Positions 1-63,011 of a stretch of 64,000 nt of DNA are shown here, one piece after another. A program made the translations under genes and the position numbers. Position 1 is the stretch's first letter, and each line of letters begins with the position of its first letter. The notes under the pieces were generated by a model that was not told the DNA's origin, did not search any database, and worked only from the letters and a program-made list of their open reading frames with translations. Origin of the DNA: Escherichia coli (lineage in GTDB: Bacteria > Pseudomonadota > Gammaproteobacteria > Enterobacterales > Enterobacteriaceae); assembly GCF_044647545.1 (NCBI RefSeq), contig NZ_CP172818.1; one strand, 5' to 3'.

Positions 1-350
1 CTGATAAAATCCCAGGTCATGTCATCGGCAAATCCGGGCGTTTCATCCTGTTCGTTCAGGTAATGCCAGAACTGGGAAAAATGCGTGATATCGGCGTACA
101 GCCATTTATCCATTTTCCCCAGCGCATAAATCAAACGCAGCGCAACATCAATATCGTCAAGCGGGCCGCTTTGGGCGAGTAACGGCTTCACTGCATATTC
201 GACGATCTCTTCATCGTTATCGACAAACAGCGACGGCAGAAACTGGCGTATCCCCTGGAGCAAAATAGAATGCGCAGTTTTCATAAATGAAAATAAATTG
301 TCCTGTGCGTCCAGTTGCTCAAGCACATCATCTTCTGTCAGCGTCGCCAT
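1..350 (-). CDS. fumE: FumE/YggD (MtlR-like fumarase E), N-terminal part; gene runs off the window start
   Basis: Minus-strand translation from ATG at 350-348 gives MATLTEDDVLEQLDAQDNLFSF..., consistent with E. coli YggD; synteny with yggF. Confidence 0.8.
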   Translation of the reverse strand, partial: MATLTEDDVLEQLDAQDNLFSFMKTAHSILLQGIRQFLPSLFVDNDEEIVEYAVKPLLAQSGPLDDIDVALRLIYALGKMDKWLYADITHFSQFWHYLNEQDETPGFADDMTWDFI

Positions 351-371
351 TGGTCTTCCGATAGATCACCA

Positions 372-1337
372 TCAATGCAGGGAGTCTATTATATTACACG
401 TTTGGTCCGCGCCGCCGATCAGTAATGTCTGCGTCCGCACCCCATTCGCCGTCTGTTGGATACCGTTCACCAACTCGCCACCCGTCACGCCCGTAGCGCT
501 AAAGAGGATATCGTTCCCCCTCACCAGTTCATCGAGCGAGTACACACGGTTAACGTCAACGCCCATTGCCTTGCAACGCTTGCGCTCCTGCTCTGCAATC
601 TGCCGATTTTCCGTGTAATCCCCTTTAGCCTGACAAAAGTCAATCAGCTGGGCCTGCATATCCCCGCCTAATGCTTTAACGGCACAGGCAGAAATCACGC
701 CTTCTGGCGCACCGCCGATGGTGTACATCACATCGTAAGGATTATCCTGCCAGCAGGTCAGCACGCTGGCGGCGACATCGCCATCCGGCAGAGCGAAAAC
801 CTTCACGCCCAGCTGTGTTGCTTCTTCAATCGCGGCACTCAGGCGCGGTTTATCCAGCGTAACCATGCGCAGCTTGTCCAGCGGTTTGCCTAACGCTTTC
901 GCCACGTTGCGCAGGTTGTCCACCAGTGGCAAAGACAGATCAATCGCGCCCGCCGCCAGCCGATTAACAACCAGTTTTTTCATATACATATCGGGAGCGT
1001 GTAGCAGGCTGCCTCGTGGGGCGAAGGCCATGACTGCCAGCGCATTGCTCTGCCCCATCGCCACCATCCTGGTGCCTTCAATCGGATCAACCGCGATATC
1101 GACTTCTGGCCCATCGCCTTTGCCCACCTCTTCGCCAATCCACAGCATCGGCGCATGGTCAATTTCTCCTTCGCCGATAACCACTCGTCCACGAAAAGCG
1201 ACGTCGTTTAATGCCTGGCGCATCGCGGTGACCGCCAGGCCATCAATTTTATTTTTGTCGCCACATCCGGTTTGCGGCCAGGCAGCCAACGCTGCCTGTT
1301 CCGTAACGCGAAATAATGGCCACGCCAGGGACATCAT
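372..1337 (-). CDS. yggF: Fructose-1,6-bisphosphatase class II paralog YggF
   Basis: 321 aa ORF, GlpX-family sequence, expected position next to yggP/cmtAB. Confidence 0.9.
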   Translation of the reverse strand: MMSLAWPLFRVTEQAALAAWPQTGCGDKNKIDGLAVTAMRQALNDVAFRGRVVIGEGEIDHAPMLWIGEEVGKGDGPEVDIAVDPIEGTRMVAMGQSNALAVMAFAPRGSLLHAPDMYMKKLVVNRLAAGAIDLSLPLVDNLRNVAKALGKPLDKLRMVTLDKPRLSAAIEEATQLGVKVFALPDGDVAASVLTCWQDNPYDVMYTIGGAPEGVISACAVKALGGDMQAQLIDFCQAKGDYTENRQIAEQERKRCKAMGVDVNRVYSLDELVRGNDILFSATGVTGGELVNGIQQTANGVRTQTLLIGGADQTCNIIDSLH

Positions 1338-2611
1338 TGCGCGGCCTCCCCGATATCAACGCCAAATTGCGCCAGCAGATATTTCTCGGCCTGCTCATTC
1401 CAGATGCCGTGCGTTTCCTCAACCAGCCGCGCCAACTCTTTAAACAGCGGATCGGTTTTGCCTTTTTCGGCAAAATCGGCAATGGCAGTGAGCGGCATGG
1501 TCACGCCGTTATAAATGAGTTTTTTACCGCCTGGGATATCCGGCAGATTGAGCACGGTTTCTGGCACCGCATCCAGGCCACCAATATGGGTCACCATAAA
1601 CGACGGCTGTAACTGCCCCGTGGCGCTAAGGGCAATCGCCTCTTTCATGTCGTCCGTTGAACCGCCAGATGTACCGACGACGTGCGTGCTGTTGTAATGG
1701 ACGTTGTAGAAATTAAACGGCACTTTGAAGTTTTTATCCGTCGGCCCGGCAAAGAAGTTCAGGCAGCCATCTTCCGCCAGTAATTCGTCAGCCATCTCAA
1801 CGACAGCAGGCACCGCCGCATAAACAAAAATGTCATCGAACCCGACATCTCCTGTCAGCGCCCGCAGCTTCTGTACCGGATCGCTCATCCCTTTGGTATT
1901 CACATACACCAGCTCAATGCCTTTACTGGCCGCCAGCTCCACCGGCAGCAGCTTCTGTACCTGCGCCAGGCGTTTGTCGTCGATATCGACCACCACCACC
2001 CGCGACGGTTGTATACCGCCGTTAATGGCGTAATCGATAGCGCCAATGCCCATTGGGCCAGCACACGCCAGCAGTGCAATATTGCCGCCAGGTTTGACGC
2101 CCATGCGATGCTCATAAACATATTGCGTGGTGTGATAATTGGCATGATAAGCGCCAATAATGCAGCACATAGGCTCTGCCAGCGACGCCGCAGCAAAATA
2201 AGAGCCGTGATAGGGTAATACGCAGCCCAGGTTAATGGCGATCTCGGGAATAATCATATAGGTGGCGTTACCGCCAAAATATTCGTAGCTGTAGCCCGCT
2301 GAATATCCGCCTGGTAACCCCATCGCCGGTTGCAATACAAAACGCTGGCCTTTTTTATATTTGTCGGTGAGATTTTTACCCACTTCAACAATAACCCCGG
2401 CACATTCATGCCCGGTAATGACCGGATGATTTTCTAAATCGTCGGGTACGCGTTTATGTTCACTACCGAGTAACGCCGCTTTCTAGGTCGATAAACAGAC
2501 GCTGTCAGAAATTACACTCACTAACAGTTCATTATCGGTAATTTCTGGCAGTTCAAATTCGCGCAGACGGACATCCCGCTTGCCATAAATAGCAGCAACT
2601 TTGGTTTTCAT
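1334..2611 (-). pseudogene. yggP: Putative zinc-type dehydrogenase YggP interrupted by an in-frame amber codon (TAG at 2483-2485 on the coding strand)
   Basis: Reading frame from ATG at 2611 (MKTKVAAIYGKRDVRL...SVCLST*) stops at TAG, then continues in the same frame as the 349 aa ORF 1334-2383; total length 425 codons as in K-12 yggP. Confidence 0.75.
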
Positions 2612-2625
2612 TTTTACCTCTGTAA

Positions 2626-4014
2626 TCAGTGTTTATGTTCGGCGGTTAATTGATTAAATAAAGTGTCGAGTTTGGGATCGCCAATATAGTTATTAATCAG
2701 TATCAGCGGTTTATCCGTCACACGTTTCACGCGCCCTTCCAGACTAGCGTGAGTAACGACGATATCCGCATCCGCAGGCACGTTTTCTATCGCGTAATGT
2801 TTTACTTCAATTGCCAGCCCCGCTTTTTCCAGGCGTTTACGGAAGGTGGTTGCGCCCATCGCGCTGGAGCCCATCCCCGCATCGCAAACAAAGGCGATAC
2901 GCTTAACTCTGCTTAGCGAGAATGCACCCTCTTGTTTCATCGCCTTAACCGCATTGGCTGACTGAGCAAACTCATCTTCGCTCTCCGTTTCCACCGTTTT
3001 TTCCATCTTCAGTATCAGCGAAGTGATAGCAAAGGACACCAGGGTACCTACCGTAACACCAGCAATTGTCGCCAGGAATGAGCCTTTCGGCGTCAGCGCC
3101 AGGTAAGCAAAGATAGACCCCGGACTTGGGCCAGCCACCAGACCACCGTCCAGTAAGTTAAACATCCAGGTGCCAGACATACCGCCCGCAATCATGGCAA
3201 TAATGGTCAGCGGCTTCATCAGCACATATGGGAAATACAGTTCGTGGATCCCACCGAGGAAGTGAATAATCATCGCCCCGGGCGCAGAACGTTTACTCAT
3301 CCCTTTACCAAACAAGGTAAACGCCAGCAGCAGCCCCAGGCCCGGACCTGGGTTAGAGGCCACCATAAAGAAGATGGATTTACCGTTAACCGAAGCCTGT
3401 TGCATTCCCAGCGGATAATAGACGCCCTGATCGATCGCATTATTAAGGAAAAGCACTTTCGCCGGTTCATTGATGACTGACAGCAGAGGCAGATAACCCG
3501 CATGTACCAGCGCCTCAATACACTCTTTGACGAAAGTATTGGCAATTAACACCGCCGGGCCGATCACTTCAAAACCCAGCAGACAAAGGAGCATCCCCGC
3601 GATACCTAATGAGAAGTTATTGATAACCATCTCAAAACCAGCAGGTATGCGTTTTTCCAGTGCCTTATCGACATATTTTATGACCAGCCCACCGAGCGGC
3701 CCCATAATCATTGAGCCAAGGAACATCGGGATCTCTGCGCCGACGATCACACCAATAGTACCAATTCCGCCCATGACCGCGCCGCGTTTACCGCCGACCA
3801 GATGACCACCGGTAGAACCAATCATCACGGGCAATAAATAGGTAATCATCGGGCCGACAATTTTGGCGAAATGTTCGTTAGGCAGCCAACCGGTGGGAAT
3901 AAATAACGCAGTAATAAAACCCCAGGCAATAAAAGCACCAATATTGGGGATGACCATTGCAGTCAAAAAGCCCCCAAAAGCCTGGACCTTTGCACGAGCA
4001 GACTTGTTTTCCAT
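2626..4014 (-). CDS. cmtA: Cryptic mannitol-type PTS enzyme IICB
   Basis: 462 aa ORF, PTS EIIC/EIIB sequence, synteny. Confidence 0.92.
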   Translation of the reverse strand: MENKSARAKVQAFGGFLTAMVIPNIGAFIAWGFITALFIPTGWLPNEHFAKIVGPMITYLLPVMIGSTGGHLVGGKRGAVMGGIGTIGVIVGAEIPMFLGSMIMGPLGGLVIKYVDKALEKRIPAGFEMVINNFSLGIAGMLLCLLGFEVIGPAVLIANTFVKECIEALVHAGYLPLLSVINEPAKVLFLNNAIDQGVYYPLGMQQASVNGKSIFFMVASNPGPGLGLLLAFTLFGKGMSKRSAPGAMIIHFLGGIHELYFPYVLMKPLTIIAMIAGGMSGTWMFNLLDGGLVAGPSPGSIFAYLALTPKGSFLATIAGVTVGTLVSFAITSLILKMEKTVETESEDEFAQSANAVKAMKQEGAFSLSRVKRIAFVCDAGMGSSAMGATTFRKRLEKAGLAIEVKHYAIENVPADADIVVTHASLEGRVKRVTDKPLILINNYIGDPKLDTLFNQLTAEHKH

Positions 4015-4041
4015 AATATTATCCTGTAGAGGAGAGAGTAA

Positions 4042-4485
4042 TTATCCGCGGCTGATAATGTCCGCTAATTGTTTTTCTGATGATGCTGTTAAGAGTTGTT
4101 CGAGTATTTCTTCTTCGCACAGTAATTCACTTAACGCCTGAATAGCGCCAATGTGCGAATCGGCATCGGCAGCAGAGAGTCCGATGAGTAATTTAATTGG
4201 TTCGTCATTCCCCGGAAAATAAACACCTTGTTCAAGTAATGTCAAAGACATCCCGGTTTTAAGCGCCCCACATTCCGGTCGCGCATGAGGCATTGCCACG
4301 CCTGGTGCGAGAATATAATAAGGGCCATTGTTAATGGTGGAATCTTTAATTGCCTGAATGTAATTCTCGCTGATATAGTTTTTATCCAGCAATGATACCA
4401 TCGAGAAATCGATAGCTTCCTGCCAATCTTTTGCTGAATGTATAACTGAGATTGATGATTCTGGAAAATAATCACTAAGCCGCAT
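4042..4485 (-). CDS. cmtB: Cryptic mannitol-type PTS enzyme IIA
   Basis: 147 aa ORF, PTS EIIA-type sequence, directly upstream of cmtA. Confidence 0.9.
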   Translation of the reverse strand: MRLSDYFPESSISVIHSAKDWQEAIDFSMVSLLDKNYISENYIQAIKDSTINNGPYYILAPGVAMPHARPECGALKTGMSLTLLEQGVYFPGNDEPIKLLIGLSAADADSHIGAIQALSELLCEEEILEQLLTASSEKQLADIISRG

Positions 4486-4839
4486 AAATTATCCTTATTT
4501 TATTTTTAGGGTACCGTCCGGCGGTAAAAATAAAATACTCGTGCGGTTTAATGAAAGCAATTGAGAAGAAAAACCCCATAAACCAAAATAATAAAACCTT
4601 AAATAACAACAATATGAAATTGATATTTTTAAAGTCAACTTTGTATTTGTTATATTTATCACAAAATCAACATTTTGTTTGTTATTGTATTTGTGATGCA
4701 TATCTCTATTTATTTATTGAATGTTCGAAAACATACTTTTCTAATGCAATGTTTTTTCGCTATACCCCTTTATAGATTCTGAATTCTCACCTGTCGGCTA
4801 TTTTCTCCTTACCTCATGTGACATATTCCCCATTTTACT

Positions 4840-5320
4840 CAAAAAAAATTTATATAAAAGCACCTTTTTCATAAACCTTATTTCCCCCAAAAAAATCTTT
4901 TTTTATCCCTTTGGGCGTTTTTCCTGTTTTTTCCCCCTTTTTTTCTTTTTTACCCCTTAAAAAAAGGAACGCGGCATTTTTTTGCCCTACGAAAAAATCG
5001 TAAAATTTGCCGAGCCGGGTCTGGGTTTTAAGATCCCGTTTTTGAAAAGGGGAAAAAAATTTCCACCCGTAATAAGGCGGGGGTTTATCAGGGATTAAAG
5101 CCTTCAACCCCCCACCAGAAACCGGCAAAAAAAAAAATTGAGTGAGCTTCCACATAAAAAATTCAGAAAAAGGCGCGGTTTATACCACCTACAACACCAT
5201 TGAAGCATTAAAAGATCGTCTGATTGTCCGTCAGTTGCCAACTCAACTGGAGAATTCCCATATACATACAACTACAAAACAACAAACATAAACAAAACCC
5301 ACAAAAAAAAATATCTCTAA
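4840..5320. other. Low-complexity, homopolymer-rich non-coding block in the cmtB-tktA intergenic space
   Basis: Runs of A8-A11, T7-T9, C5-C6, G5; no ORF support; spacer is about 890 bp, which I recall as much shorter in K-12. Confidence 0.6.
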
Positions 5321-5323
5321 AGT

Positions 5324-5349
5324 AATAAAAAGGGCCGCTTTCGCGGCCC
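5324..5349 (-). terminator. Rho-independent terminator downstream of tktA
   Basis: GGGCCGC-GAAA-GCGGCCC hairpin followed by T-run on the minus strand, just past the tktA stop. Confidence 0.75.
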
Positions 5350-5371
5350 TTCTCACAAAGCATCTTACCGA

Positions 5372-7363
5372 TTACAGCAGTTCTTTTGCTTTCGCAACAA
5401 CGTTGTCAACGGTGAAGCCGAACTCTTCAAACAGCAGCTCTGCCGGAGCAGATTCACCGAAGGTGGTCATGCCGACGATAGCACCGTTCAGGCCAACATA
5501 CTTGTACCAGTAGTCAGCAATACCCGCTTCCACCGCAACGCGTGCAGTAACCGCTTTCGGCAGGACGGATTCACGGTAAGCCGCATCCTGCTTGTCGAAT
5601 GCATCGGTAGACGGCATGGAAACCACGCGCGCCTTCACGCCTTCGGCAGTCAGTTTTTCGTAGGCAGCAACCGCCAGTTCAACTTCCGAACCGGTCGCGA
5701 TGAAGATCAGTTCCGGCTGACCGGCACAGTCTTTCAGCACATAACCACCGCGCGCGATGTTTGCCAGCTGCTCTTCAGTACGCTCCTGCTGCGCCAGGTT
5801 CTGACGGGAGAGGATAAGCGCAGTCGGGCCGTCCTGACGCTCAACGCCGTATTTCCATGCCACTGCAGATTCAACCTGGTCACACGGACGCCATGTAGAC
5901 ATGTTCGGGGTCACGCGCAGTGAAGCGACCTGCTCAACCGGCTGGTGAGTCGGGCCATCTTCGCCCAGACCGATGGAGTCGTGGGTGTAAACCATCACCT
6001 GACGCTGTTTCATCAGCGCAGCCATACGTACGGCGTTACGTGCGTATTCCACGAACATCAGGAAGGTGGAGGTGTACGGCAGGAAGCCACCGTGCAGGGA
6101 GATACCGTTAGCAATCGCGGTCATACCGAACTCGCGAACACCGTAGTGGATGTAGTTACCCGCAACATCTTCGTTGATTGCTTTAGAACCAGACCACAGG
6201 GTCAGGTTAGACGGTGCCAGGTCAGCAGAGCCGCCGAGGAATTCCGGCAACAGCGGGCCGAACGCTTCAATCGCATTCTGAGACGCTTTACGGCTGGCGA
6301 TTTTCGCCGGATTAGCCTGCAGTTTAGCGATGAATTCTTTCGCTTTGGCATCGAAGTCAGACGGCATTTCGCCTTTCATACGGCGGGTAAATTCAGCGGC
6401 TTCCTGCGGATAAGCTTTCGCGTAAGCAGCGAATTTCTCGTTCCATGCGGATTCTTTCGCCTGGCCTGCTTCTTTCGCATCCCACTGAGCATAGATTTCA
6501 GACGGGATTTCGAACGGTGCATATTTCCAGCCCAGCTGTTCGCGGGTCAGGGCAATTTCAGCGTCGCCCAGCGGCGCACCGTGGGAGTCGTGCGTACCGG
6601 CTTTGTTCGGTGAACCGAAACCGATGATGGTTTTGCACATCAGCAGGGACGGTTTGTCAGTCACTGCGCGCGCTTCTTCTACTGCGCGTTTGATGGATGC
6701 CGCGTCATGACCGTCGATGCCGCGAATAACGTGCCAGCCGTAAGCTTCGAAACGCATTGCGGTGTCGTCGGTGAACCAGCCTTCAACGTGACCATCGATA
6801 GAGATACCGTTGTCATCGTAGAACGCAATCAGTTTACCCAGCTTCAGCGTACCCGCCAGAGAACAAACTTCGTGGGAGATGCCTTCCATCATGCAGCCGT
6901 CGCCCATGAAGGCGTAGGTGTAGTGGTCGACGATGTCGTGGCCCGGACGGTTAAACTGCGCCGCCAGCGTTTTTTCTGCAATCGCCATACCGACTGCGTT
7001 GGCAATACCCTGACCCAGCGGACCTGTAGTGGTTTCCACGCCAGCGGTGTAACCCACTTCCGGGTGGCCCGGAGTTTTAGAGTGCAGCTGACGGAAGTTT
7101 TTCAGTTCTTCCATCGGCAGATCGTAACCGGTGAGGTGCAGCAGGCTGTAGATCAGCATGGAGCCGTGGCCGTTGGACAGCACGAAGCGGTCACGGTCAG
7201 CCCAGGACGGATTCTGCGGGTTGTGTTTCAGGAAATCACGCCACAGGACTTCGGCAATGTCAGCCATACCCATAGGGGCACCCGGGTGACCGGATTTGGC
7301 TTTCTGTACTGCGTCCATGCTCAGCGCACGAATAGCATTGGCAAGCTCTTTACGTGAGGACAT
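5372..7363 (-). CDS. tktA: Transketolase 1
   Basis: ORF 5372-7393; start placed at [14 protein letters not shown] (ATG 7363-7361), 663 aa. Confidence 0.95.
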
Positions 7364-7640
7364 TTTGACTCCAGATCGGATGATGAAGGGCACGCCCTTA
7401 ACGACTTGACGACAGCGCGTTTTGGGCTACGCCGGAAAATTTGCCAACAATTTACCGCAAGCCGCGCGTCATGTACATGGAACATCCTTTTGCCGCTTCA
7501 GAAATCTCTGGATCATGCTCGCATGTTGCGCAATCTGCTCGCCCGTCCGCTGCGCTTTTCCTTATACTGAGACTGAGCGTCGATTCACCTGCAAACGGCG
7601 CATTTTTAGAATAATCCTGACCTTGTGCGGAAGAGAAAAC

Positions 7641-8399
7641 ATGAAAATTCGCGCCTTATTGGTAGCAATGAGCGTGGCAACGGTACTGACCGGTTGCCAG
7701 AATATGGACTCCAACGGACTGCTCTCATCAGGAGCGGAAGCTTTTCAGGCTTACAGTTTGAGTGATGCGCAGGTGAAAACCCTGAGCGATCAGGCATGTC
7801 AGGAGATGGACAGCAAGGCGACGATTGCGCCAGCCAATAGCGAATACGCTAAACGTCTGACAACTATTGCCAATGCGCTAGGCAACAATATCAACGGTCA
7901 GCCGGTGAATTACAAAGTGTATATGGCGAAGGATGTGAACGCCTTTGCAATGGCTAACGGCTGTATCCGCGTCTATAGCGGGCTGATGGATATGATGACG
8001 GATAACGAAGTCGAAGCGGTGATCGGTCACGAGATGGGGCACGTAGCGTTGGGCCATGTGAAAAAAGGGATGCAGGTGGCACTTGGTACAAATGCCGTAC
8101 GAGTAGCTGCGGCCTCTGCGGGCGGGATTGTCGGCAGTTTATCTCAATCACAACTCGGTGATCTGGGCGAGAAATTAGTTAATTCGCAATTCTCCCAGCG
8201 CCAGGAAGCAGAAGCCGATGATTATTCTTACGATCTTCTGCGCCAACGCGGCATCAGCCCGGCAGGTCTTGCCACCAGCTTTGAAAAACTGGCGAAGCTG
8301 GAAGAAGGCCGTCAAAGCTCAATGTTTGACGACCATCCAGCATCCGCCGAACGCGCCCAGCATATTCGCGATCGTATGAGCGCGGATGGAGTTAAGTAA
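7641..8399 (+). CDS. loiP: Outer-membrane lipoprotein metalloprotease LoiP (YggG), M48 family
   Basis: Start at MKIRALLVAMSVATVLTGC (lipobox); HEMGH zinc motif in translation; 252 aa. Confidence 0.9.
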   Translation: MKIRALLVAMSVATVLTGCQNMDSNGLLSSGAEAFQAYSLSDAQVKTLSDQACQEMDSKATIAPANSEYAKRLTTIANALGNNINGQPVNYKVYMAKDVNAFAMANGCIRVYSGLMDMMTDNEVEAVIGHEMGHVALGHVKKGMQVALGTNAVRVAAASAGGIVGSLSQSQLGDLGEKLVNSQFSQRQEAEADDYSYDLLRQRGISPAGLATSFEKLAKLEEGRQSSMFDDHPASAERAQHIRDRMSADGVK

Positions 8400-8441
8400 T
8401 TTATTACGCCGGATTTGACGCATAACGCATCTTATCCGGGC

Positions 8442-9362
8442 TTACTCGCCCTTTTTCGCCGCCTGAATATACAGCATTTCCAGCGCCAGCGTCGCCGCAG
8501 CCAGAGCGGTGATTTCCGACTGATCGTATGCCGGAGCCACTTCCACTACGTCCATCCCAACAATGTTGAGATCTTTCAGGCCGCGTACCAGTTTAATAGC
8601 GCGATCGGAGGTCAGGCCGCCAATTACTGGCGTACCTGTTCCCGGCGCGAAAGCAGGATCCAGGCAGTCGATATCAAAGGTCAGGTAAACCGGCATATCA
8701 CCTACAATCTGTTTCACCTGAGCGATAACGTCATCCACGCTGCGATCGTTCACCTGGCAGGCGTCCAGCACGGTAAAACCGTTGTCTTTATCAAACTCGG
8801 TACGAATACCAATCTGCACGGAATGATTCGGGTCGATCAGACCTTCTTTCGGCGCGGTATAGAACATGGTGCCGTGGTCAAATTCACAACCGTTAGCGTA
8901 GGTATCGGTGTGGGCGTCAAAGTGTACCAGCGCCATTTTACCGAAATGCTTCGCATGAGCACGCAGCAGCGGCAGCGTAACAAAGTGGTCACCACCGAAG
9001 GAGAGCATACGCTTACCGGCAGCCAGCAGCTTCTCGGCGTGCGCCTGCAGCTTCTCGCTCATCTCACGGGCATCTCCGAAGGCATATACCAGATCGCCGC
9101 AGTCCACGACGTTCAGGCGCTCACGCATGTCGAAATTCCACGGGAAGCGATTGTGTTCCCAGGCCAGATTCGTCGAAACCTGACGGATCGCTGCCGGACC
9201 GTGGCGACCACCCGCACGACCAGAAGTGGCCATATCGAACGGCACGCCAGTAATCACCCAGTCAGCATCGCTGTCATATGGCTGGAAGTTCATCGGCAGG
9301 CGTAAAAAACCAAAGGCGTTGGAAACCAGTGAGTTATCGTATTGATGACCTAAGGTGCTCAT
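8442..9362 (-). CDS. speB: Agmatinase
   Basis: 306 aa ORF, arginase-family sequence, directly downstream of speA. Confidence 0.95.
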
Positions 9363-9390
9363 GGATGGACTCCTATTACAAAGTCGATAT

Positions 9391-9430
9391 AAAAAAACCC
9401 TTCCGCGTCGTTAGGCCCGACGAGGAAGGG
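9391..9430 (-). terminator. Rho-independent terminator/attenuator between speA and speB
   Basis: Inverted repeat CCCTTCC(G/T)CGTCG with 7 nt loop followed by T7 on the minus strand. Confidence 0.6.
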
Positions 9431-9528
9431 TTGGATTTGCGAAACACAAGTATGCGCTAATTATCGCCTTAAATGAAAAGAGGGCCGCATCAAGGACTAA
9501 CACAGGTCCCATACCACCAAACTCCAAC

Positions 9529-11542
<2,014 letters not shown>

Positions 11543-11550
11543 AGCGAACC

Positions 11551-11682
11551 TCAAATTATTTTATTAAGTGTAAAACAGTTAACGACTATCGCAGCCTGGA
11601 ACTGCGATAACAACCCATAAGCACATGGATTTTCCAGCAGTGAATGCTGACGCTCCAACTGCGCAACCGGTTTCTTTTTCAT
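11551..11682 (-). CDS. yqgB: Small protein YqgB (43 aa) upstream of speA
   Basis: Minus-strand translation [43 protein letters not shown]. Confidence 0.7.
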
Positions 11683-11817
11683 AACATTATTAAGCACATA
11701 ACCGAACGTAAGTGTGACAGTTCGGCGAAACCACGAGAAAACTCTTGTTTTTACAAGAGCGCCCTTGTTCAGTCCTCAGTAACTGTAACCAGCTCTTGAA
11801 TCCTGAGAAGCGCCGAG

Positions 11818-12033
11818 ATGGGTATAACATCGGCAGGTATGCAAAGCAGAGATGCAGAGTGCGGGGAACGAATCTTCACCAGAACGGTGAGACAGGTTAA
11901 GCAGCAGACAACGGTTCATTATTTCGTATCACCTCCACGGCCGCCTGTTAAGACGAACCCACAAGCCAAAACTCTGATTTCAACCCGGCTGGAAGTGGCA
12001 ACACGAAAGAAACGTCGTGTGCTTTTTATTTAA
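11818..12033 (+). CDS. yqgC: Small uncharacterised ORF YqgC (71 aa)
   Basis: ORF in expected position between speA and metK; recognition from memory only. Confidence 0.4.
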
Positions 12034-12296
12034 GCCGCGCGCCGCGTTTTATACCCCACAATGGCAGAAAATTGCAAAAGATAAATACGCAGAATGCCAG
12101 CATTGTCAGGAAAAATTTCCAGCCACGTTTTTAAAAGAATGAGACACGATTCAAAAAAAAGTGGAAATCGGGTGAAGAATTGACCTAAAATAGCCATCCA
12201 GATGTTAATCCATCCATACCGATTAACACTCAGACTGCCAGTGTTTTTAACCTGCAGAGTCGTGGTAGGATCCGCTACCACAGAAAATCCACACAA
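12030..12296 (-). CDS. yqgD: Small uncharacterised ORF, possibly YqgD
   Basis: 88 aa ORF overlapping the metK upstream region; weak. Confidence 0.3.
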
Positions 12297-12336
12297 CAGT
12301 TTGAGCTAACCAAATTCTCTTTAGGTGATATTAAAT

Positions 12337-13491
12337 ATGGCAAAACACCTTTTTACGTCCGAGTCCGTCTCTGAAGGGCATCCTGACAAAATTGCTGACC
12401 AAATCTCTGATGCCGTTTTAGACGCGATCCTCGAACAGGATCCGAAAGCACGCGTTGCTTGCGAAACCTACGTAAAAACCGGCATGGTTTTAGTTGGCGG
12501 CGAAATCACCACCAGCGCCTGGGTAGACATCGAAGAGATCACCCGTAACACCGTTCGCGAAATTGGCTATGTACATTCCGACATGGGCTTTGACGCTAAC
12601 TCCTGTGCGGTTCTGAGCGCTATCGGCAAACAGTCTCCTGACATCAACCAGGGCGTTGACCGTGCCGATCCGCTGGAACAGGGCGCGGGTGACCAGGGTC
12701 TGATGTTTGGCTACGCAACCAATGAAACCGACGTGCTGATGCCAGCGCCTATCACCTATGCACACCGTCTGGTACAGCGTCAGGCTGAAGTGCGTAAAAA
12801 CGGCACTCTGCCGTGGCTGCGCCCGGACGCGAAAAGCCAGGTGACTTTCCAGTATGACGACGGCAAAATCGTTGGTATCGATGCTGTCGTGCTTTCCACT
12901 CAGCACTCTGAAGAAATCGACCAGAAATCGCTGCAAGAAGCGGTAATGGAAGAGATCATCAAGCCGATTCTGCCGGCTGAATGGCTGACTTCTGCCACCA
13001 AATTCTTCATCAACCCGACCGGTCGTTTTGTTATCGGTGGCCCGATGGGTGACTGCGGTCTGACTGGTCGTAAAATTATCGTTGATACCTACGGCGGCAT
13101 GGCACGTCACGGTGGTGGTGCATTCTCTGGTAAAGATCCATCAAAAGTGGACCGTTCCGCAGCGTACGCAGCACGTTATGTCGCGAAAAACATCGTTGCT
13201 GCTGGCCTGGCCGATCGTTGTGAAATTCAGGTTTCCTACGCAATCGGCGTGGCTGAACCGACCTCTATCATGGTGGAAACTTTCGGTACCGAGAAAGTGC
13301 CTTCTGAACAACTGACTCTGCTGGTACGTGAGTTCTTTGACCTGCGTCCATACGGTCTGATTCAGATGCTGGATCTGCTGCACCCGATCTACAAAGAAAC
13401 CGCAGCATACGGTCACTTTGGTCGCGAACATTTCCCGTGGGAAAAAACCGACAAAGCGCAGCTGCTGCGCGATGCTGCCGGTCTGAAGTAA
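12337..13491 (+). CDS. metK: S-adenosylmethionine synthetase
   Basis: Start at [18 protein letters not shown]; 384 aa. Confidence 0.97.
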
Positions 13492-13513
13492 TCTTTCTTC
13501 ACCTGCTTTCAAA

Positions 13514-13542
13514 GGCCAGCCTCGCGCTGGCCTTTTTCTTTT
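13514..13542 (+). terminator. Rho-independent terminator of metK
   Basis: GGCCAGC-CTCGC-GCTGGCC hairpin followed by TTTTTCTTTT. Confidence 0.8.
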
Positions 13543-13828
13543 ACCTCACCGCGGTGGATAGGCGTTCACGCGGCATCCGGCAAAAAGCTGCCCGCACAAT
13601 AACATCATTCTTCCTGAACACGTTTTACCGCAAATTATCATCGCTACTGAAACCGATTACACCAACCACACCAGACAAAGATTTGTAATATTTTCATATT
13701 ATTATTCGGTTTTCACAGTTGTTACATTTCTTTTCAGTAAAGTCTTAATTGCAGATAACAGCGTTTAATCTATGATGATATAACTCAATTATTTTCATGC
13801 ACTTAAATCATAACTAAGATAAATGTTA

Positions 13829-13844
13829 GTGTAAGCGATTACAC
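13829..13844. promoter_or_regulatory. Gal operator-like palindrome (GalR/GalS site) in the galP promoter
   Basis: GTGTAAGCGATTACAC, near-perfect palindrome matching the gal operator pattern. Confidence 0.6.
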
Positions 13845-13847
13845 TGA

Positions 13848-13863
13848 TGTGATTTGCTTCACA
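13848..13863. promoter_or_regulatory. CRP consensus site in the galP promoter
   Basis: TGTGA-TTTGCT-TCACA, full match to TGTGA-N6-TCACA. Confidence 0.6.
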
Positions 13864-13926
13864 TCTTTTTACGTCGTACTCACCTATCTTAATTCACAAT
13901 AAAAAATAACCATATTGGAGGGCATC

Positions 13927-15321
13927 ATGCCTGACGCTAAAAAACAGGGGCGGTCAAACAAGGCAATGACGTTTTTCGTCTGCTTCCTTGCTGCTCTGGC
14001 GGGATTACTCTTTGGCCTGGATATCGGTGTAATTGCTGGCGCACTGCCGTTTATTGCAGATGAATTCCAGATTACTTCGCACACGCAAGAATGGGTCGTA
14101 AGCTCCATGATGTTCGGTGCGGCAGTCGGTGCGGTGGGCAGCGGCTGGCTCTCCTTTAAACTCGGGCGCAAAAAGAGCCTGATGATCGGCGCAATTTTGT
14201 TTGTTGCCGGTTCACTGTTCTCTGCGGCTGCGCCAAACGTTGAAGTACTGATTCTTTCCCGCGTTCTGCTGGGGCTGGCGGTGGGTGTGGCCTCTTATAC
14301 CGCACCACTGTACCTGTCAGAAATTGCGCCGGAAAAAATTCGCGGCAGTATGATCTCGATGTATCAGTTGATGATCACTATCGGGATCCTCGGTGCTTAT
14401 CTTTCTGATACCGCCTTCAGCTACACCGGTGCATGGCGCTGGATGCTGGGTGTGATTATCATCCCGGCAATTTTGCTGCTGATTGGTGTCTTCTTCCTGC
14501 CAGACAGCCCTCGTTGGTTTGCCGCCAAACGCCGTTTTGTTGATGCCGAACGCGTGCTGCTGCGCCTGCGTGACACCAGCGCGGAAGCGAAACGTGAACT
14601 GGATGAAATCCGTGAAAGTTTGCAGGTTAAACAGAGTGGCTGGGCGCTGTTTAAAGAGAACAGCAACTTCCGTCGCGCGGTGTTCCTTGGCGTACTGTTG
14701 CAGGTAATGCAGCAATTCACCGGGATGAACGTCATCATGTATTACGCGCCGAAAATCTTCGAACTGGCGGGTTATACCAACACTACCGAGCAAATGTGGG
14801 GGACGGTGATCGTCGGCCTGACTAACGTACTCGCCACCTTTATCGCAATCGGCCTTGTTGACCGCTGGGGACGTAAACCAACGCTAACGCTGGGCTTCCT
14901 GGTGATGGCTGCTGGCATGGGCGTACTCGGTACAATGATGCATATCGGTATCCACTCTCCGTCGGCGCAGTATTTCGCTATCGCCATGCTGCTGATGTTT
15001 ATTGTCGGTTTTGCCATGAGTGCCGGTCCGCTGATTTGGGTACTGTGCTCCGAAATTCAGCCGCTGAAAGGCCGCGATTTTGGCATCACCTGCTCCACCG
15101 CCACCAACTGGATTGCCAACATGATCGTTGGCGCAACGTTCCTGACCATGCTCAACACGCTGGGTAACGCCAACACCTTCTGGGTGTATGCGGCTCTGAA
15201 CGTACTGTTTATCTTGCTGACATTGTGGCTGGTACCGGAAACCAAACACGTTTCGCTGGAACATATTGAACGTAATCTGATGAAAGGTCGTAAACTGCGC
15301 GAAATCGGCGCTCACGATTAA
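13927..15321 (+). CDS. galP: Galactose:H+ symporter (MFS)
   Basis: Start at [17 protein letters not shown]; 464 aa. Confidence 0.96.
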
Positions 15322-15397
15322 TCTCCTCAGGCTTCCTCCCGTCGCGGAGGAAGCCACCTCTTGCAGTCATCTTTTCTTCGCTCTATCCTCTGCCGCT

Positions 15398-15895
15398 ATG
15401 AAAACATCCCGTCTCCCTATCGCCATCCAACAGGCCGTTATGCGTCGCCTGCGGGAAAAACTCGCCCAGGCCAACCTGAAGCTAGGACGTAACTACCCGG
15501 AGCCAAAACTCTCTTACACCCAGCGCGGCACCTCCGCCGGAACAGCCTGGCTGGAAGGCTATGAAATTCGCCTCAATCCCGTTTTGCTGTTGGAAAACAG
15601 TGAAGCCTTTATTGAAGAAGTGGTGCCGCACGAACTGGCACATTTGCTGGTATGGAAACATTTCGGCCGCGTAGCACCACATGGCAAAGAGTGGAAGTGG
15701 ATGATGGAAAGCGTGCTGGGCGTTCCCGCCCGTCGTACGCATCAGTTTGAACTGCAATCCGTGCGCCGCAACACCTTCCCCTACCGCTGTAAGTGCCAGG
15801 AACATCAGCTTACCGTACGCCGCCATAATCGCGTAGTTCGTGGCGAAGCCGTCTATCGCTGTGTTCACTGCGGCGAACAGCTGGTTGCGAAATAA
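15398..15895 (+). CDS. sprT: SprT (YggI) zinc-metallopeptidase-like protein
   Basis: 165 aa ORF with HELAH motif. Confidence 0.9.
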
Positions 15896-15989
15896 CCACC
15901 TGAACTATCAGGAACTTTCCTGACCTGGCTGATTGCATACCAAAACAACTTTCGCTACGTTGCTGGCTCGTTTTAACACGGAGTAAGTG

Positions 15990-16697
15990 ATGTACCGTTA
16001 TTTGTCTATTGCTGCGGTGGTACTGAGCGCAGCATTTTCCGGCCCGGCGTTGGCCGAAGGTATCAATAGTTTTTCTCAGGCGAAAGCCGCGGCGGTAAAA
16101 GTCCACGCTGACGCGCCCGGTACGTTTTATTGCGGATGTAAAATTAACTGGCAGGGCAAAAAAGGCGTTGTTGATCTGCAATCGTGCGGCTATCAGGTGC
16201 GCAAAAATGAAAACCGCGCCAGCCGCGTAGAGTGGGAACACGTCGTTCCCGCCTGGCAATTCGGTCACCAGCGCCAGTGCTGGCAGGACGGTGGACGTAA
16301 AAATTGCGCCAAAGATCCGGTCTATCGCAAGATGGAAAGCGATATGCATAACCTGCAACCGTCAGTCGGCGAGGTGAATGGCGATCGCGGCAACTTTATG
16401 TACAGCCAGTGGAATGGCGGCGAAGGCCAGTACGGTCAATGCGCCATGAAGGTCGATTTCAAAGAAAAAGCTGCCGAACCACCAGCGCGTGCACGCGGTG
16501 CCATTGCGCGCACCTACTTCTATATGCGCGACCAATACAACCTGACACTCTCCCGCCAGCAAACGCAGCTGTTCAACGCATGGAACAAGATGTATCCGGT
16601 TACCGACTGGGAGTGCGAGCGTGATGAACGCATCGCGAAGGTGCAGGGCAATCATAACCCGTATGTGCAACGCGCTTGCCAGGCGCGAAAGAGCTAA
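15990..16697 (+). CDS. endA: Periplasmic DNA-specific endonuclease I
   Basis: Start at [12 protein letters not shown] (signal peptide), GGAG RBS 7 nt upstream; 235 aa. Confidence 0.93.
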
Positions 16698-16776
16698 CCT
16701 ACACTAGCGGGATTCTTTTTGTTAACCCCTACCCCACGCGTACAACCGCGTGGGGAGACGACGCGGATTTTTAACT

Positions 16777-17508
16777 ATGCGTATCCCCCGCATTTATCAT
16801 CCTGAACCACTGACCAGCCATTCTCACATCGCGCTTTGCGAAGATGCCGCCAACCATATCGGGCGCGTACTGCGCATGGGGCCGGGGCAGGCGTTGCAAT
16901 TGTTTGACGGCAGCAACCAGGTCTTTGACGCCGAAATTACCAGCGCCAGCAAAAAAAGCGTGGAAGTGAAGGTGCTGGAAGGCCAACTCGACGATCGTGA
17001 ATCTCCGCTGCATATTCACCTCGGTCAGGTGATGTCGCGTGGCGAAAAAATGGAATTTACTATCCAGAAATCGATCGAACTCGGTGTAAGCCTCATTACG
17101 CCACTTTTTTCTGAACGCTGCGGCGTTAAACTGGATAGTGAACGTCTGAACAAGAAGCTCCAGCAGTGGCAGAAGATTGCAATTGCTGCCTGTGAGCAGT
17201 GTGGTCGTAACCGGGTGCCGGAAATCCGTCCAGCGATGGATCTGGAAGCCTGGTGTGCAGAGCAGGATGAAGGACTGAAACTGAATCTTCACCCGCGCGC
17301 CAGTAACAGCATCAATACGTTGCCGTTACCGGTTGAACGCGTCCGCCTGCTGATTGGCCCGGAAGGCGGTTTATCGGCAGATGAAATTGCCATGACTGCC
17401 CGCTATCAATTTACTGATATCCTGTTGGGACCTCGCGTTTTGCGTACAGAGACAACTGCGCTCACCGCCATTACCGCGCTACAAGTACGATTTGGCGATT
17501 TGGGCTAA
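16777..17508 (+). CDS. rsmE: 16S rRNA m3U1498 methyltransferase
   Basis: Start at [12 protein letters not shown]; 243 aa. Confidence 0.92.
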
Positions 17509-17520
17509 CGGAGAAGAATA

Positions 17521-18471
17521 ATGATCAAGCTCGGCATCGTGATGGACCCCATCGCAAACATCAACATCAAGAAAGATTCCAGTTTCGCTATGTTGCTGGA
17601 AGCACAGCGTCGTGGTTACGAACTTCACTATATGGAGATGGGCGATCTGTATCTGATCAATGGCGAAGCCCGCGCCCATACCCGCACGCTGAACGTGAAG
17701 CAGAACTACGAAGAGTGGTTTTCGTTCGTCGGTGAACAGGATCTGCCGCTGGCCGATCTCGATGTGATCCTGATGCGTAAAGACCCGCCGTTTGATACCG
17801 AGTTTATCTACGCGACCTATATTCTGGAACGTGCCGAAGAGAAAGGGACGCTGATCGTTAACAAGCCGCAGAGCCTGCGCGACTGTAACGAGAAACTGTT
17901 TACTGCCTGGTTCTCTGACTTAACGCCAGAAACGCTGGTTACGCGCAATAAAGCGCAGCTAAAAGCGTTCTGGCAGAAACACGGCGACATCATTCTTAAG
18001 CCACTGGACGGTATGGGCGGCGCGTCGATTTTCCGCGTGAAAGAAGGCGATCCAAACCTCGGCGTGATTGCCGAAACCCTGACTGAGCATGGCACTCGCT
18101 ACTGCATGGCGCAAAATTACCTGCCAGCCATTAAAGATGGCGACAAACGCGTGCTGGTAGTGGATGGCGAGCCGGTGCCGTATTGCCTGGCGCGTATTCC
18201 GCAGGGGGGCGAAACCCGTGGCAATCTGGCTGCCGGTGGTCGCGGTGAACCTCGTCCGCTGACGGAAAGTGACTGGAAAATCGCCCGTCAGATTGGGCCG
18301 ACGCTGAAAGAAAAAGGGCTGATTTTTGTTGGTCTGGATATCATCGGCGACCGTCTGACTGAAATTAACGTCACCAGCCCAACCTGTATTCGTGAGATTG
18401 AAGCAGAGTTTCCGGTGTCGATCACCGGAATGTTAATGGATGCCATCGAAGCACGTTTACAGCAGCAGTAA
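17521..18471 (+). CDS. gshB: Glutathione synthetase
   Basis: 316 aa ORF, ATP-grasp sequence. Confidence 0.96.
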   Translation: MIKLGIVMDPIANINIKKDSSFAMLLEAQRRGYELHYMEMGDLYLINGEARAHTRTLNVKQNYEEWFSFVGEQDLPLADLDVILMRKDPPFDTEFIYATYILERAEEKGTLIVNKPQSLRDCNEKLFTAWFSDLTPETLVTRNKAQLKAFWQKHGDIILKPLDGMGGASIFRVKEGDPNLGVIAETLTEHGTRYCMAQNYLPAIKDGDKRVLVVDGEPVPYCLARIPQGGETRGNLAAGGRGEPRPLTESDWKIARQIGPTLKEKGLIFVGLDIIGDRLTEINVTSPTCIREIEAEFPVSITGMLMDAIEARLQQQ

Positions 18472-18579
18472 CCCACCTTAGCGAGAAGGATCTCGTTGAG
18501 ACTCTGAGTGACAGCGCCCTTCTTTCCACGCATACTGGGCGCTGTTGCTTTTTTGAACCAGGAAACAGAACCTCTGACA

Positions 18580-19143
18580 ATGAATTTACAGCATCACTTT
18601 CTTATTGCCATGCCTGCTCTCCAGGATCCGATTTTCCGTCGTTCCGTGGTCTACATTTGCGAACATAATACCAATGGTGCAATGGGGATCATCGTCAACA
18701 AGCCGCTGGAAAATCTCAAAATTGAAGGGATTCTGGAAAAGCTGAAGATCACGCCGGAGCCGCGTGATGAATCAATCCGTCTGGATAAACCGGTTATGCT
18801 CGGCGGTCCGCTGGCTGAAGATCGCGGGTTTATTTTGCATACTCCGCCCTCCAATTTTGCTTCCAGCATTCGCATTTCAGACAACACGGTGATGACCACT
18901 TCCCGCGATGTGCTGGAAACGCTCGGCACCGATAAACAACCGTCTGACGTATTGGTGGCTCTGGGTTATGCCTCCTGGGAGAAAGGTCAACTGGAACAAG
19001 AAATTCTCGATAACGCGTGGCTAACGGCCCCGGCAGATCTGAATATTCTGTTCAAAACGCCGATTGCCGACCGCTGGCGCGAGGCGGCAAAACTGATTGG
19101 TGTGGATATTCTCACCATGCCTGGTGTGGCAGGACACGCCTGA
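18580..19143 (+). CDS. yqgE: UPF0301 protein YqgE
   Basis: Start at [14 protein letters not shown]; 187 aa. Confidence 0.9.
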
Positions 19144-19559
19144 TGAGTGGAACCTTACTCGCCTTCGACTTCGGTACCAAAAGCATTGGTGTAGCGGTCG
19201 GCCAACGCATTACCGGCACCGCTCGCCCATTGCCTGCAATTAAAGCACAGGACGGTACGCCGGACTGGAATCTCATCGAACGTTTACTGAAAGAGTGGCA
19301 GCCGGACGAAATCATCGTTGGTTTGCCGCTGAATATGGATGGCACCGAGCAACCATTGACTGCCAGAGCCCGTAAATTTGCCAACCGTATTCATGGCCGT
19401 TTCGGTGTTGAAGTAAAGCTCCATGACGAGCGTCTTAGCACCGTGGAGGCACGTTCCGGTCTGTTTGAACAGGGCGGCTATCGGGCGCTCAACAAAGGCA
19501 AAGTTGACTCTGCCTCTGCGGTTATTATTCTCGAAAGCTATTTCGAGCAGGGATATTAA
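19143..19559 (+). CDS. ruvX: Holliday-junction resolvase-like RNase RuvX (YqgF)
   Basis: Start at [20 protein letters not shown], overlapping the yqgE stop; 138 aa. Confidence 0.93.
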
Positions 19560-19599
19560 GGCGATTTAAAAGCCTGGCGGATAGTCGTACCATCCCGCC

Positions 19600-19745
19600 A
19601 TCTTGCCGGATGCGGCGTGAACGCCTTATCCAGCACACATCTGGCAGCGGCTGTAGGTCTGATAAGACGCGTTAGCGTCGCATCAGACGTTTATTGCCGG
19701 GTGCTGCGTTTGTATGCCTGATAAGCGTAGCGCATCAGGCATATT
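19600..19745. repeat. REP/BIME palindromic repeat cluster
   Basis: Tandem GCCGGATGCGGCGTGAACGCCTTATCC / GCCTGATAAGCGTAGCGCATCAGGC units between ruvX and yggR. Confidence 0.8.
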
Positions 19746-19771
19746 TACTAAACTAATCAATCACTTTAGCC

Positions 19772-20752
19772 TCACAAACGTCCTTCCCCCACCCGCTGCT
19801 GATAACTCTGCTGAAACGTTAACATCCCCACCTGCTGCCCGGTTTGAATAACATGCGGCAACTGGTGGGTTTTCCCTTCGCGAATCAAATTCCCCACCGC
19901 GGGAGTGTTAATCAGTAATTCAAACAGCGCCACGCGTCCTTCCTGTTTATCCACTTCCAGCTTTTGTGACAGCACTGCCCGTAAACTACCCGCCAGTTGA
20001 TTACGTACGGGATCTTTTTCCTGCGCCGGAAATGAATCCACCAGTCGCTCAACTGCCTGCGCGGCACCACGCGTATGTAAAGTTGCCAGCACCAGGTGTC
20101 CGGTTTCTGCTGCCGTCAGCGCCAGACGGATTGTCTCGCTGTCACGCAGCTCTCCGAGCAAAATCACATCGGGATCTTCCCGCAATGCGGCCCGCAATCC
20201 CGATGCGAACGTCATACAGTGCAAACCAATCTCCCGCTGCTGGATCAAACATCGCTGGCTGGCATAGAGATATTCCACAGGATCTTCCAGCGTCAGAATA
20301 TGCGCATCGGCATGTTGATTGAGATAGCCAACCATCGCCGCCAGCGTGGTAGATTTGCCGCTCCCCGTCGCCCCCGTCACCAGAATCAGGCCATTCTCGC
20401 TCTTGAGTAATTCCGGCAATACCGGTGGCGCACCAAGCTGTTCGAGCTGTGGACAGTGCGAAGGTAACAACCGTAATGCCAGAGAAATACCTTGCCGTTG
20501 CGCGAACGCACTGCCACGCAACCGCTGATTTTCCGCCAGCGACACAGCAAAATCCAGCTGACCATTCTCCAGCAATATTGCCCGCTGATCGTCATCCAGC
20601 CACTCCCGCAGTAGCTCTTCGACGCCCGGCGCATCAAACGGCGCAGCTTCCATTCGCCCGCGAATACGCCATCGTGCGGGCCAGGCGCTGCACAGGTGTA
20701 GATCCGAGACGTTATGCTTTACACTAAGGGCCACAATTTCTTCCATATTCAT
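19772..20752 (-). CDS. yggR: PilT-like type IV pilus retraction ATPase homolog
   Basis: Start at MNMEEIVALSVKHNVSDLHL; Walker A GATGSGKST; 326 aa. Confidence 0.9.
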   Translation of the reverse strand: MNMEEIVALSVKHNVSDLHLCSAWPARWRIRGRMEAAPFDAPGVEELLREWLDDDQRAILLENGQLDFAVSLAENQRLRGSAFAQRQGISLALRLLPSHCPQLEQLGAPPVLPELLKSENGLILVTGATGSGKSTTLAAMVGYLNQHADAHILTLEDPVEYLYASQRCLIQQREIGLHCMTFASGLRAALREDPDVILLGELRDSETIRLALTAAETGHLVLATLHTRGAAQAVERLVDSFPAQEKDPVRNQLAGSLRAVLSQKLEVDKQEGRVALFELLINTPAVGNLIREGKTHQLPHVIQTGQQVGMLTFQQSYQQRVGEGRL

Positions 20753-20769
20753 ACTAAGATCCTCGGAAA

Positions 20770-21474
20770 ATGAACGATATTGCGCATAACCTGGCACAGG
20801 TCCGGGACAAAATCTCAGCGGCTGCAACGCGTTGCGGCCGTTCTCCAGAAGAAATTACGCTGCTTGCAGTCAGTAAAACAAAACCTGCGAGCGCCATCGC
20901 AGAAGCCATTGATGCCGGGCAGCGTCAATTTGGTGAAAACTACGTTCAGGAAGGGGTAGATAAAATTCGCCACTTTCAGGAACTGGGCGTAACAGGATTA
21001 GAATGGCATTTTATTGGCCCGTTGCAGTCTAATAAAAGCCGCCTGGTGGCAGAGCATTTCGACTGGTGTCATACCATCGACCGTTTGCGCATTGCTACCC
21101 GCCTCAACGATCAGCGCCCGGCAGAACTTTCCCCTCTTAACGTACTGATTCAAATTAATATTAGTGATGAAAACAGTAAGTCCGGGATTCAACTGGCAGA
21201 ACTGGACGAGCTGGCAGCTGCGGTCGCTGAACTACCGCGTTTACGTCTGCGCGGGCTGATGGCAATCCCTGCGCCTGAGTCAGAATATGTAAGGCAGTTT
21301 GAAGTTGCACGCCAAATGGCTGTAGCATTTGCCGGACTGAAAACGCGCTACCCGCATATCGACACGCTCTCTCTGGGAATGTCGGACGATATGGAAGCCG
21401 CCATTGCGGCAGGTAGCACGATGGTTCGTATCGGCACTGCAATTTTTGGTGCGCGTGATTACTCTAAAAAATAA
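20770..21474 (+). CDS. yggS: PLP-homeostasis protein YggS
   Basis: 234 aa ORF. Confidence 0.93.
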   Translation: MNDIAHNLAQVRDKISAAATRCGRSPEEITLLAVSKTKPASAIAEAIDAGQRQFGENYVQEGVDKIRHFQELGVTGLEWHFIGPLQSNKSRLVAEHFDWCHTIDRLRIATRLNDQRPAELSPLNVLIQINISDENSKSGIQLAELDELAAAVAELPRLRLRGLMAIPAPESEYVRQFEVARQMAVAFAGLKTRYPHIDTLSLGMSDDMEAAIAAGSTMVRIGTAIFGARDYSKK

Positions 21475-21491
21475 GGAATTAAAGGAACGCC

Positions 21492-22058: not shown

Positions 22059-22345
22059 GTGCCGTAACAGTTAATGATGACGGTCTGGTTTTACGGCTCT
22101 ATATTCAGCCGAAAGCCAGCCGTGATTCTATTGTCGGTTTACATGGCGACGAGGTAAAAGTCGCCATTACCGCGCCGCCGGTTGACGGCCAGGCCAACAG
22201 CCATCTGGTGAAGTTTCTCGGTAAGCAATTCCGGGTTGCCAAAAGCCAGGTGGTGATTGAAAAAGGCGAACTTGGCCGCCACAAACAAATTAAAATCATT
22301 AATCCGCAACAAATCCCGCCAGAAATCGCGGCGTTAATTAATTAG
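22055..22345 (+). CDS. yggU: UPF0235 protein YggU
   Basis: Start at [13 protein letters not shown] overlapping the yggT stop; 96 aa. Confidence 0.88.
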
Positions 22346-22352
22346 GTATCAT

Positions 22353-25262: not shown

Positions 25263-25265
25263 AAA

Positions 25266-37143: not shown

Positions 37144-37154
37144 ATTCATAAGAA

Positions 37155-62981: not shown

Positions 62982-63011
62982 CTCACTAACACCCTCAATC
63001 CTTTGAATTTT

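Follow-up and report, generated by a model that had tools for sequence, protein, structure and literature searches.

What occupies the interval between cmtB and tkt (tktA) in the 64,000-nucleotide stretch of Escherichia coli DNA analyzed here (the window)? The original prediction had given a spacer of about 890 bp at this position, compared to about 300 bp in K-12, and had taken the excess for extra low-complexity DNA lying in intergenic space. Both lengths were accurate, since the window spacer measured 886 bp (positions 4486 to 5371) and that of K-12 MG1655 measured 313 bp (L004 5332-5644), a difference of 573 bp. The alignment to the K-12 interval that had been proposed as a check was run, and K-12 was found to share only about 90 bp adjoining cmtB plus the tktA coding end. 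Beyond those first ~90 bp, K-12 possesses an unrelated, AT-rich middle of 222 bp, lacks the SPFH gene described below, and has a terminator stem (GGTCGCC/GGCGACC) unlike that of the window. A native K-12-like spacer was thereby ruled out, and the window spacer was assigned to the B2-type allele rather than the K-12 allele.

The B2/ST131-type spacer is 1,330 bp long and contains a 909-bp SPFH/Band 7 ("prohibitin family") gene, which was present in 1,813 to 1,830 of 5,426 complete E. coli genomes (about one-third). This gene has its own upstream region and has its terminator in common with tkt. The encoded protein (WP_000646940.1; 302 amino acids) matched PF01145 with an E value of 5.6e-32 (111.6 bits, compared to a cut-off of 23.6) and was only distantly related to HflC and HflK, with scores under their equivalog cut-offs; homologues of the same name were found across the Enterobacterales. 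A membrane segment lies at the N terminus of the protein, whose C-terminal region contains repeats rich in alanine and glutamate. Identity to the reference was 90% or more in each of the 1,830 natural copies, of which 1,819 were full length. The native gene is thus an ordinary accessory gene encoding a fifth SPFH-family protein in about one-third of E. coli, and since it had previously been annotated as such, there is nothing new in it.

When the window was compared with the locus carrying this gene (L002), both edges of the spacer proved to be native. The stretch adjoining cmtB was identical to L002 save for an 8-bp deletion (GGGTACGC) at 4562/4563, the point at which the K-12 and B2-type spacers part; this deletion was not seen in any of the 5,426 complete genomes, where the best full-length match was 97.7%. 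On the other side, positions 5312 to 9475 showed zero mismatches to the ST131-like reference. The homopolymer-rich block that had been placed at 4790 to 5330 was confirmed, in that this interval held 21 runs of at least five bases, compared to 2.7 ± 1.6 in mononucleotide shuffles (maximum, 9), but the truly anomalous stretch was only 4833 to 5311, positions 4790 to 4832 being native. Likewise, most of the runs that had been listed were present (A8 at 4841, A11 at 5127, A9 at 5303, C5/C5/C6, and G5), but the longest T runs were three T7 runs, and the T9 that had been reported was not found. Of 1,270 541-bp windows taken across the 64 kb, only 5 reached a count of 21, and all of these overlapped this block or the other anomalous blocks. 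The fraction of adjacent bases that were identical was 0.54 in 4833-5185, compared to 0.27 in the whole window and 0.29 in the native counterpart.

Base for base, positions 4833 to 5254 corresponded to 21 nt upstream of the SPFH gene plus its first 407 nt, at about 82% identity, with 77 to 78 substitutions and 6 gap columns (Table 1). The start codon at 4854 was changed from ATG to ATA and the ribosome-binding site from AAGGAAG to AAAAAAA. Six in-frame stops preceded the longer of two error-free islands, and the 3' half of the gene was replaced. That longer island is the short coding-like stretch that had been noticed near 5187 to 5250, and it was indeed coding in origin: 5171-5254 was 100% identical to the native SPFH gene over residues 109 to 136. 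A direct BLASTP comparison gave the same answer, a 49-amino-acid ORF (5142-5291, plus strand) matching residues 99 to 136 of WP_000646940.1 with 35 of 38 identities (E = 1e-23); nothing of the protein beyond this 38-residue fragment could be recognized. Beyond this island, a filler of 57 nt stood where the gene has 486 bp (L002 6311-6796), a net shortening of 429 bp. Native sequence resumed with the last 15 nt of the gene and was interrupted only at 5319 to 5326, where a 2-bp deletion and a 1-bp insertion were observed; the inserted T yields a K-12-like run, GTAATAAAAA (5321-5330). These differences account for the length of the spacer exactly (1330 - 8 - 6 - 429 - 1 = 886). What had been read as additional low-complexity DNA is instead a corrupted copy of the SPFH gene, 429 bp shorter than the original, and the block looks intergenic only because the gene has been destroyed.

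Table 1. Features of the cmtB-tkt locus and of the other segments of the window that are discussed in the text
Feature	Positions	Strand	Remarks
cmtA	2626-4014	-	E. coli gene order in the window
cmtB	4042-4485	-	Left flank, intact; 147-aa ORF; identical to ST131-like reference
Native B2/ST131-type cmtB-SPFH intergenic region	4486-4832	.	100% identical to L002 except for 8-bp deletion
Spacer plus SPFH gene (non-K-12 segment)	4576-5370		Smeared, then filler
Smeared ribosome-binding site and SPFH gene start	4833-5254	+	In register with L002 5883-6310
Error-free island	5007-5041	+	35-nt perfect run; encodes VAEPGLGFKIPF, a conserved N-terminal SPFH-domain motif
Error-free island	5171-5254	+	84-nt perfect run; native residues 109-136
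A/C-rich filler, unalignable	5255-5311	.	57 nt; A 61%, C 26%, G 0%
SPFH gene end plus tkt terminator/3' untranslated stretch	5312-5371	-	Last 15 nt of gene; otherwise native
tkt (tktA)	5372-7363	-	Right flank, intact ORF; followed by loiP onward
Short loiP-speB spacer	8399-8439		Non-K-12 gap 8400-8425; 4-bp and 1-bp deletions
speB-speA segment (non-K-12)	9476-9565		90-nt filler ending in A46 in place of ~900 bp with a 732-bp hypothetical gene
hemW-yggM segment (non-K-12)	24109-25265		1,157 nt of A-rich filler in place of ~3.2 kb with three TRAP transporter genes
Operon after yghO (non-K-12)	56779-64000		Native operon spans ≥7.7 kb, from acyl-AMP ligase to lptF/G-like genes; patchy noise
Native SPFH gene (reference locus)	L002 5904-6812		Window has no intact form

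Several kinds of functional element were sought in the block. Homology to the SPFH gene and synteny with cmtB and tkt were evident, and both a domain match and an intact frame of about 300 amino acids were lacking. Two new small ORFs, the 49-amino-acid ORF and one of 101 amino acids on the minus strand (4850-5155), were considered and rejected, since neither had a Pfam match at an E value of ≤0.01 and the 101-amino-acid ORF had no database record. No terminal inverted repeats, REP palindrome, insertion sequence (IS) end, or substantial tandem array was detected in the block, the sole repeats being driven by homopolymers, and the best Rfam match of the block scored 26.9 bits compared to a gathering score of 50. 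A mobile element, a REP element, or a small RNA was therefore ruled out, in keeping with the original prediction that no IS end or REP structure was present. That prediction had also called the tktA terminator intact at the edge of the block, and this was borne out: the hairpin GGGCCGC-GAAA-GCGGCCC lies at 5332-5349 (minus strand), is followed by UUUUUAUUAC, and is undamaged, the 2-bp deletion and 1-bp insertion affecting only the adjacent run. The 68-nt fold had a free energy of -26.6 kcal/mol (z = -4.9), and it was absent from the consensus-scan list. With a G+C-rich hairpin and a U run, the intrinsic terminator of tkt is real and intact.

The substitutions within the block carried a signature of their own. 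In 68 of 77 cases (88%) the new base was the same as an adjacent base of the reference, compared to a null expectation of 36.7 ± 4.1 (z = 7.6); in a natural allele used as a control (L006), neighbor copies made up 18 of 40 substitutions (45%; null, 18.3; z = -0.1). The two also differed in their ratios of transitions to transversions (30:47 in the block versus 24:16 in L006), in the distribution of changes over codon positions 1, 2, and 3 (29/21/23 versus 4/1/35), and in identity to the reference (about 82%, with 77 substitutions, versus 95.6%, with 40). Changes from GC to AT numbered 45 in the block, compared to 9 from AT to GC. Copying was symmetric, the new base matching the previous one in 53 and the following one in 62 of the 78 substitutions (e.g., AGA to AAA), a symmetry that ruled out directional left-to-right copying inside the SPFH block. 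Since the variant bases copied their neighbors and not K-12, a majority consensus of the K-12 spacer and the SPFH gene was ruled out as well. Divergence was about 18% over 422 bp, whereas the remaining 4.8 kb of the alignment differed by a single SNP and one gap of 8 bp. Family-level conservation bore only a weak relation to the corruption (0.45 against 0.58; P = 0.014), conserved codons surviving somewhat better; errors that track the conservation of the protein family, as would be expected of a model-based process, were therefore considered, and the link was weak. The usual marks of a natural pseudogene were absent, as there was no transition excess, no independence of neighboring bases, and neither flank-like divergence nor intermediates. 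Judged by this signature, the damage to the block is not evolutionary.

Nor was the same version found in nature. None of the 5,426 complete genomes contained the exact version in the block, the best match to it there being 81.9%; a 43-mer taken from the block had no match in GTDB representative genomes or JGI metagenomes; and the 1,830 natural copies included no intermediates between the native gene and the block copy. Thus, none of the genomes searched supplied an equivalent native spacer, a finding that would have told against the block being anomalous.

The block is one of several in the window that share its character, as the original prediction had held. Compared with two ST131-like genomes (NZ_CP033850.1 and NZ_CP009859.1), the window was 99.96 to 99.99% identical wherever K-12 also shares the sequence, that is, at 1-4575, 5371-8399, 8426-9439, 9564-24100, and 25263-56790, so that K-12 homology to the left of the block stops at 4575. 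Every anomaly fell outside these ranges, and the non-K-12 segments were garbled, shrunken, or missing. The filler in the cmtB-tkt block resembled in composition those at 9476-9565, 24109-24712, and 25033-25265, and the fillers were A-rich on the plus strand irrespective of the strand of the gene replaced. The first three blocks were near-correct at the left and recovered abruptly at the right, a pattern of filler and decay oriented along the plus strand. In the operon following yghO, error-free runs of up to 500 nt alternated with patches of 20 to 35% substitutions; there the spectrum was flat over the 12 types, codon positions 1, 2, and 3 accounted for 327, 313, and 333 changes, the ratio of transitions to transversions was 340:623, and all ORFs were shattered. 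The flatness of the spectrum, the even distribution over codon positions, and the disruption of the ORFs ruled out a natural divergent allele or a recombination mosaic at 56779-64000.

Two further segments of the ST131-like genomes were missing outright. Directly after the tRNA-Phe gene pheV, the pheV island was absent and a 141-bp K-12-type empty site was present (37143-37283), and at 38790/38791 8.0 kb of the type II secretion operon, running from within gspL to gspD, was missing, with exactly the junction seen in K-12 (yghE/yghF). Both sites were bordered by ST131-identical DNA (gsp flanks 99.9 to 100% ST131-like). No natural complete genome was found to combine these pheV and gsp structures with ST131-like alleles, the best contiguous match being K-12, at 96.8%.

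Smaller observations were made at the edges of these segments. In the loiP-speB spacer, the 4-bp deletion directly follows the loiP stop codon and the 1-bp deletion lies 40 nt farther on; in K-12 this spacer is occupied instead by REP elements totaling about 200 bp. After the speB-speA filler, perfect ST131-like identity resumes at exactly the speA stop codon. Just 3' of hemW, the sequence at 24086-24100, TGCCGCATGCGGCGTTAATC, is a hybrid of ST131 and the REP-like K-12 sequence TGCCGGATGCGGCGTGAAC, and the adjoining hemW-yggM segment retains homology only in two short islands (24713-24763, 96%; 24788-25032, 83%) and has long A runs at 25200 to 25262. At pheV, the empty site differs from that of K-12 by 1 mismatch and a 3-bp deletion, and ST131-like references have an integrase-led island there instead. 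The operon after yghO comprises genes for an acyl-AMP ligase, an epimerase, and an ACP, together with spt, lptG/F-like, and ytfJ-like genes, at about 82% identity, and its damage begins where K-12 carries an IS5 insertion. At that point, 9 of the 11 bases of GACGTCGCGAA (56780-56790) are those of the K-12 IS5 terminal repeat and differ from ST131. Extended IS5 sequence at 56779 was ruled out, as the resemblance ends after 11 nt, and with so short an extent it may be due to chance.

Taken at the level of its sequence, the block is very probably a non-biological corruption of a known accessory SPFH gene and not a native spacer, a mobile element, or a regulatory element. It would represent a failed copying of that gene by whatever process yielded the window sequence. 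In the window, both flanking genes are reproduced almost without fault, as are the upstream region and the final 59 bp; the first 407 nt of the gene are smoothed, with bases taking the identity of a neighbor and homopolymers building up while the register is kept; and the following 486 nt are swapped for A/C filler of 57 nt. The whole stretch would then be a reconstruction that follows the alleles of an ST131-like strain faithfully where the sequence is shared with the common K-12-type backbone and that fails elsewhere, the SPFH gene being one such failure. Since the non-K-12 stretches are all garbled or missing, the window would not be a verbatim natural sequence.

As to which process was at work, within a non-biological origin we lean, with chances that are about even, toward a predictive or generative sequence model whose output degenerates into low-complexity text at points of uncertainty. 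The texture is consistent with such a model: low-complexity collapse, garbled stretches separated by verbatim ones, skips ahead in the sequence, and the somewhat better survival of conserved codons would all be produced by it. The absence of the block from public collections is likewise indirect evidence for a machine-made sequence. What such a model would not readily explain is fidelity of 99.96 to 99.99% to the alleles of one lineage over tens of kilobases.

A second non-biological process is a possible though less favored source, namely, a consensus of data from an ST131-like strain that was guided by a K-12-like template. Shared sequence would then receive the alleles of the strain, large insertions would be dropped, and non-homologous replacements would be blurred because the data there were not properly aligned to each other. 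A template of this kind would account for the exact match between the set of damaged or missing segments and the set lacking K-12 homology, for recovery within 1 to 3 bp of the return of K-12 homology in two cases (9564/9566 and 25263/25266), and for the K-12-type gsp deletion junction and pheV empty site. K-12-like bases at block edges are also consistent with it, as in GTAATAAAAA (5321-5330), the REP-like CGCATGCGGCGT (24086-24097), and the bases shared with the IS5 end at 56780-56790, and a vote among slightly out-of-register copies would be expected to give symmetric copying of neighbors. On the other hand, perfect sequence was seen over 257 bp of spacer that K-12 lacks (4576-4832) and at the terminator, which is likewise not of K-12 type, and neither the 222-bp spacer of K-12 nor its IS5 was kept. 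Moreover, a 7-kb non-K-12 operon was attempted, if in garbled form, and the 8-kb gsp segment was skipped cleanly; an 84-nt error-free island 340 nt into the block fits poorly with a progressive loss of register; the errors were mostly substitutions, unlike those of raw long reads; and the resemblance to IS5 stops at 11 nt. Whether model generated or template guided, the block would carry no biological function.

We also considered the possibility that the SPFH gene had decayed in the cell, becoming a genuine pseudogene through dislocation errors or local hypermutation in vivo followed by a net deletion of 429 bp. The block does derive from the native gene, at its native locus and between native flanks, decay does occur in accessory genes, and substitutions templated by a neighbor are a known class of polymerase error. 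Nevertheless, decay is very unlikely to have produced the block. It would have to place 77 substitutions in 422 bp beside unchanged kilobases, with no third-position or transition bias such as that of the natural allele control L006; it provides no source in the SPFH gene for a 57-nt G-free filler, and nothing intermediate was seen among the 1,830 natural copies. Furthermore, similar damage, poly-A fillers, and flat-spectrum noise were found in every other non-K-12 segment, which a process specific to this locus would not produce. An even slighter likelihood attaches to a variant in which the DNA is real and the SPFH gene was wrecked by a bounded burst of neighbor-templated mutagenesis with an internal replacement, several ST131-like accessory segments being hit and the backbone spared. 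The reading originally offered, a native low-complexity intergenic insert in the cmtB-tkt spacer of the lineage, is next to impossible: the spacer is longer than that of K-12 and has neither an intact ORF nor a Pfam match, as such an insert would, but the native spacer of the lineage is longer still (1,330 bp) and coding, and the block aligns base for base to the SPFH gene in a version that occurs in none of the genomes searched.

On the sequence evidence, then, we judge the block not to be a real feature. If its origin is indeed artifactual, it would have no biological content but could serve as a useful quality flag. Because the window, and presumably its source too, would not be a verbatim natural sequence, the blocks at 9476-9565, 24109-25265, and 56779-64000, together with the pheV and gsp junctions, should not be interpreted biologically. 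Simple diagnostics of such corruption are the fraction of neighbor copies, a transition-to-transversion ratio near or below 1, and an even spread over codon positions; to these can be added A-rich fillers fixed to one strand and damage limited to accessory segments.

Two known systems resemble the damage in part. In dislocation (transient misalignment) mutagenesis by error-prone polymerases, the new base is that of a neighboring template position, and the new bases in the block likewise equal neighboring template bases. However, dislocation yields isolated events rather than changes in 18% of one 400-bp patch with untouched flanks, and it leaves no fillers, poly-A runs, or flat-spectrum noise at other loci. 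For autoregressive genomic language models (Evo 2), a low-complexity collapse with homopolymer runs has been reported (bioRxiv 10.64898/2026.01.17.700093). The window is similar to such output in its homopolymer-rich and A-rich text, in its loss of fidelity where the sequence is less predictable, in the alternation of error-free spans with garbled spans that are roughly in register, and in its forward skips. The reported collapse differs from it in being multi-kilobase and in following the decoding of hundreds of kilobases, whereas the blocks in the window span 60 to 1,200 bp and the text returns after them to near-perfect, lineage-specific sequence.
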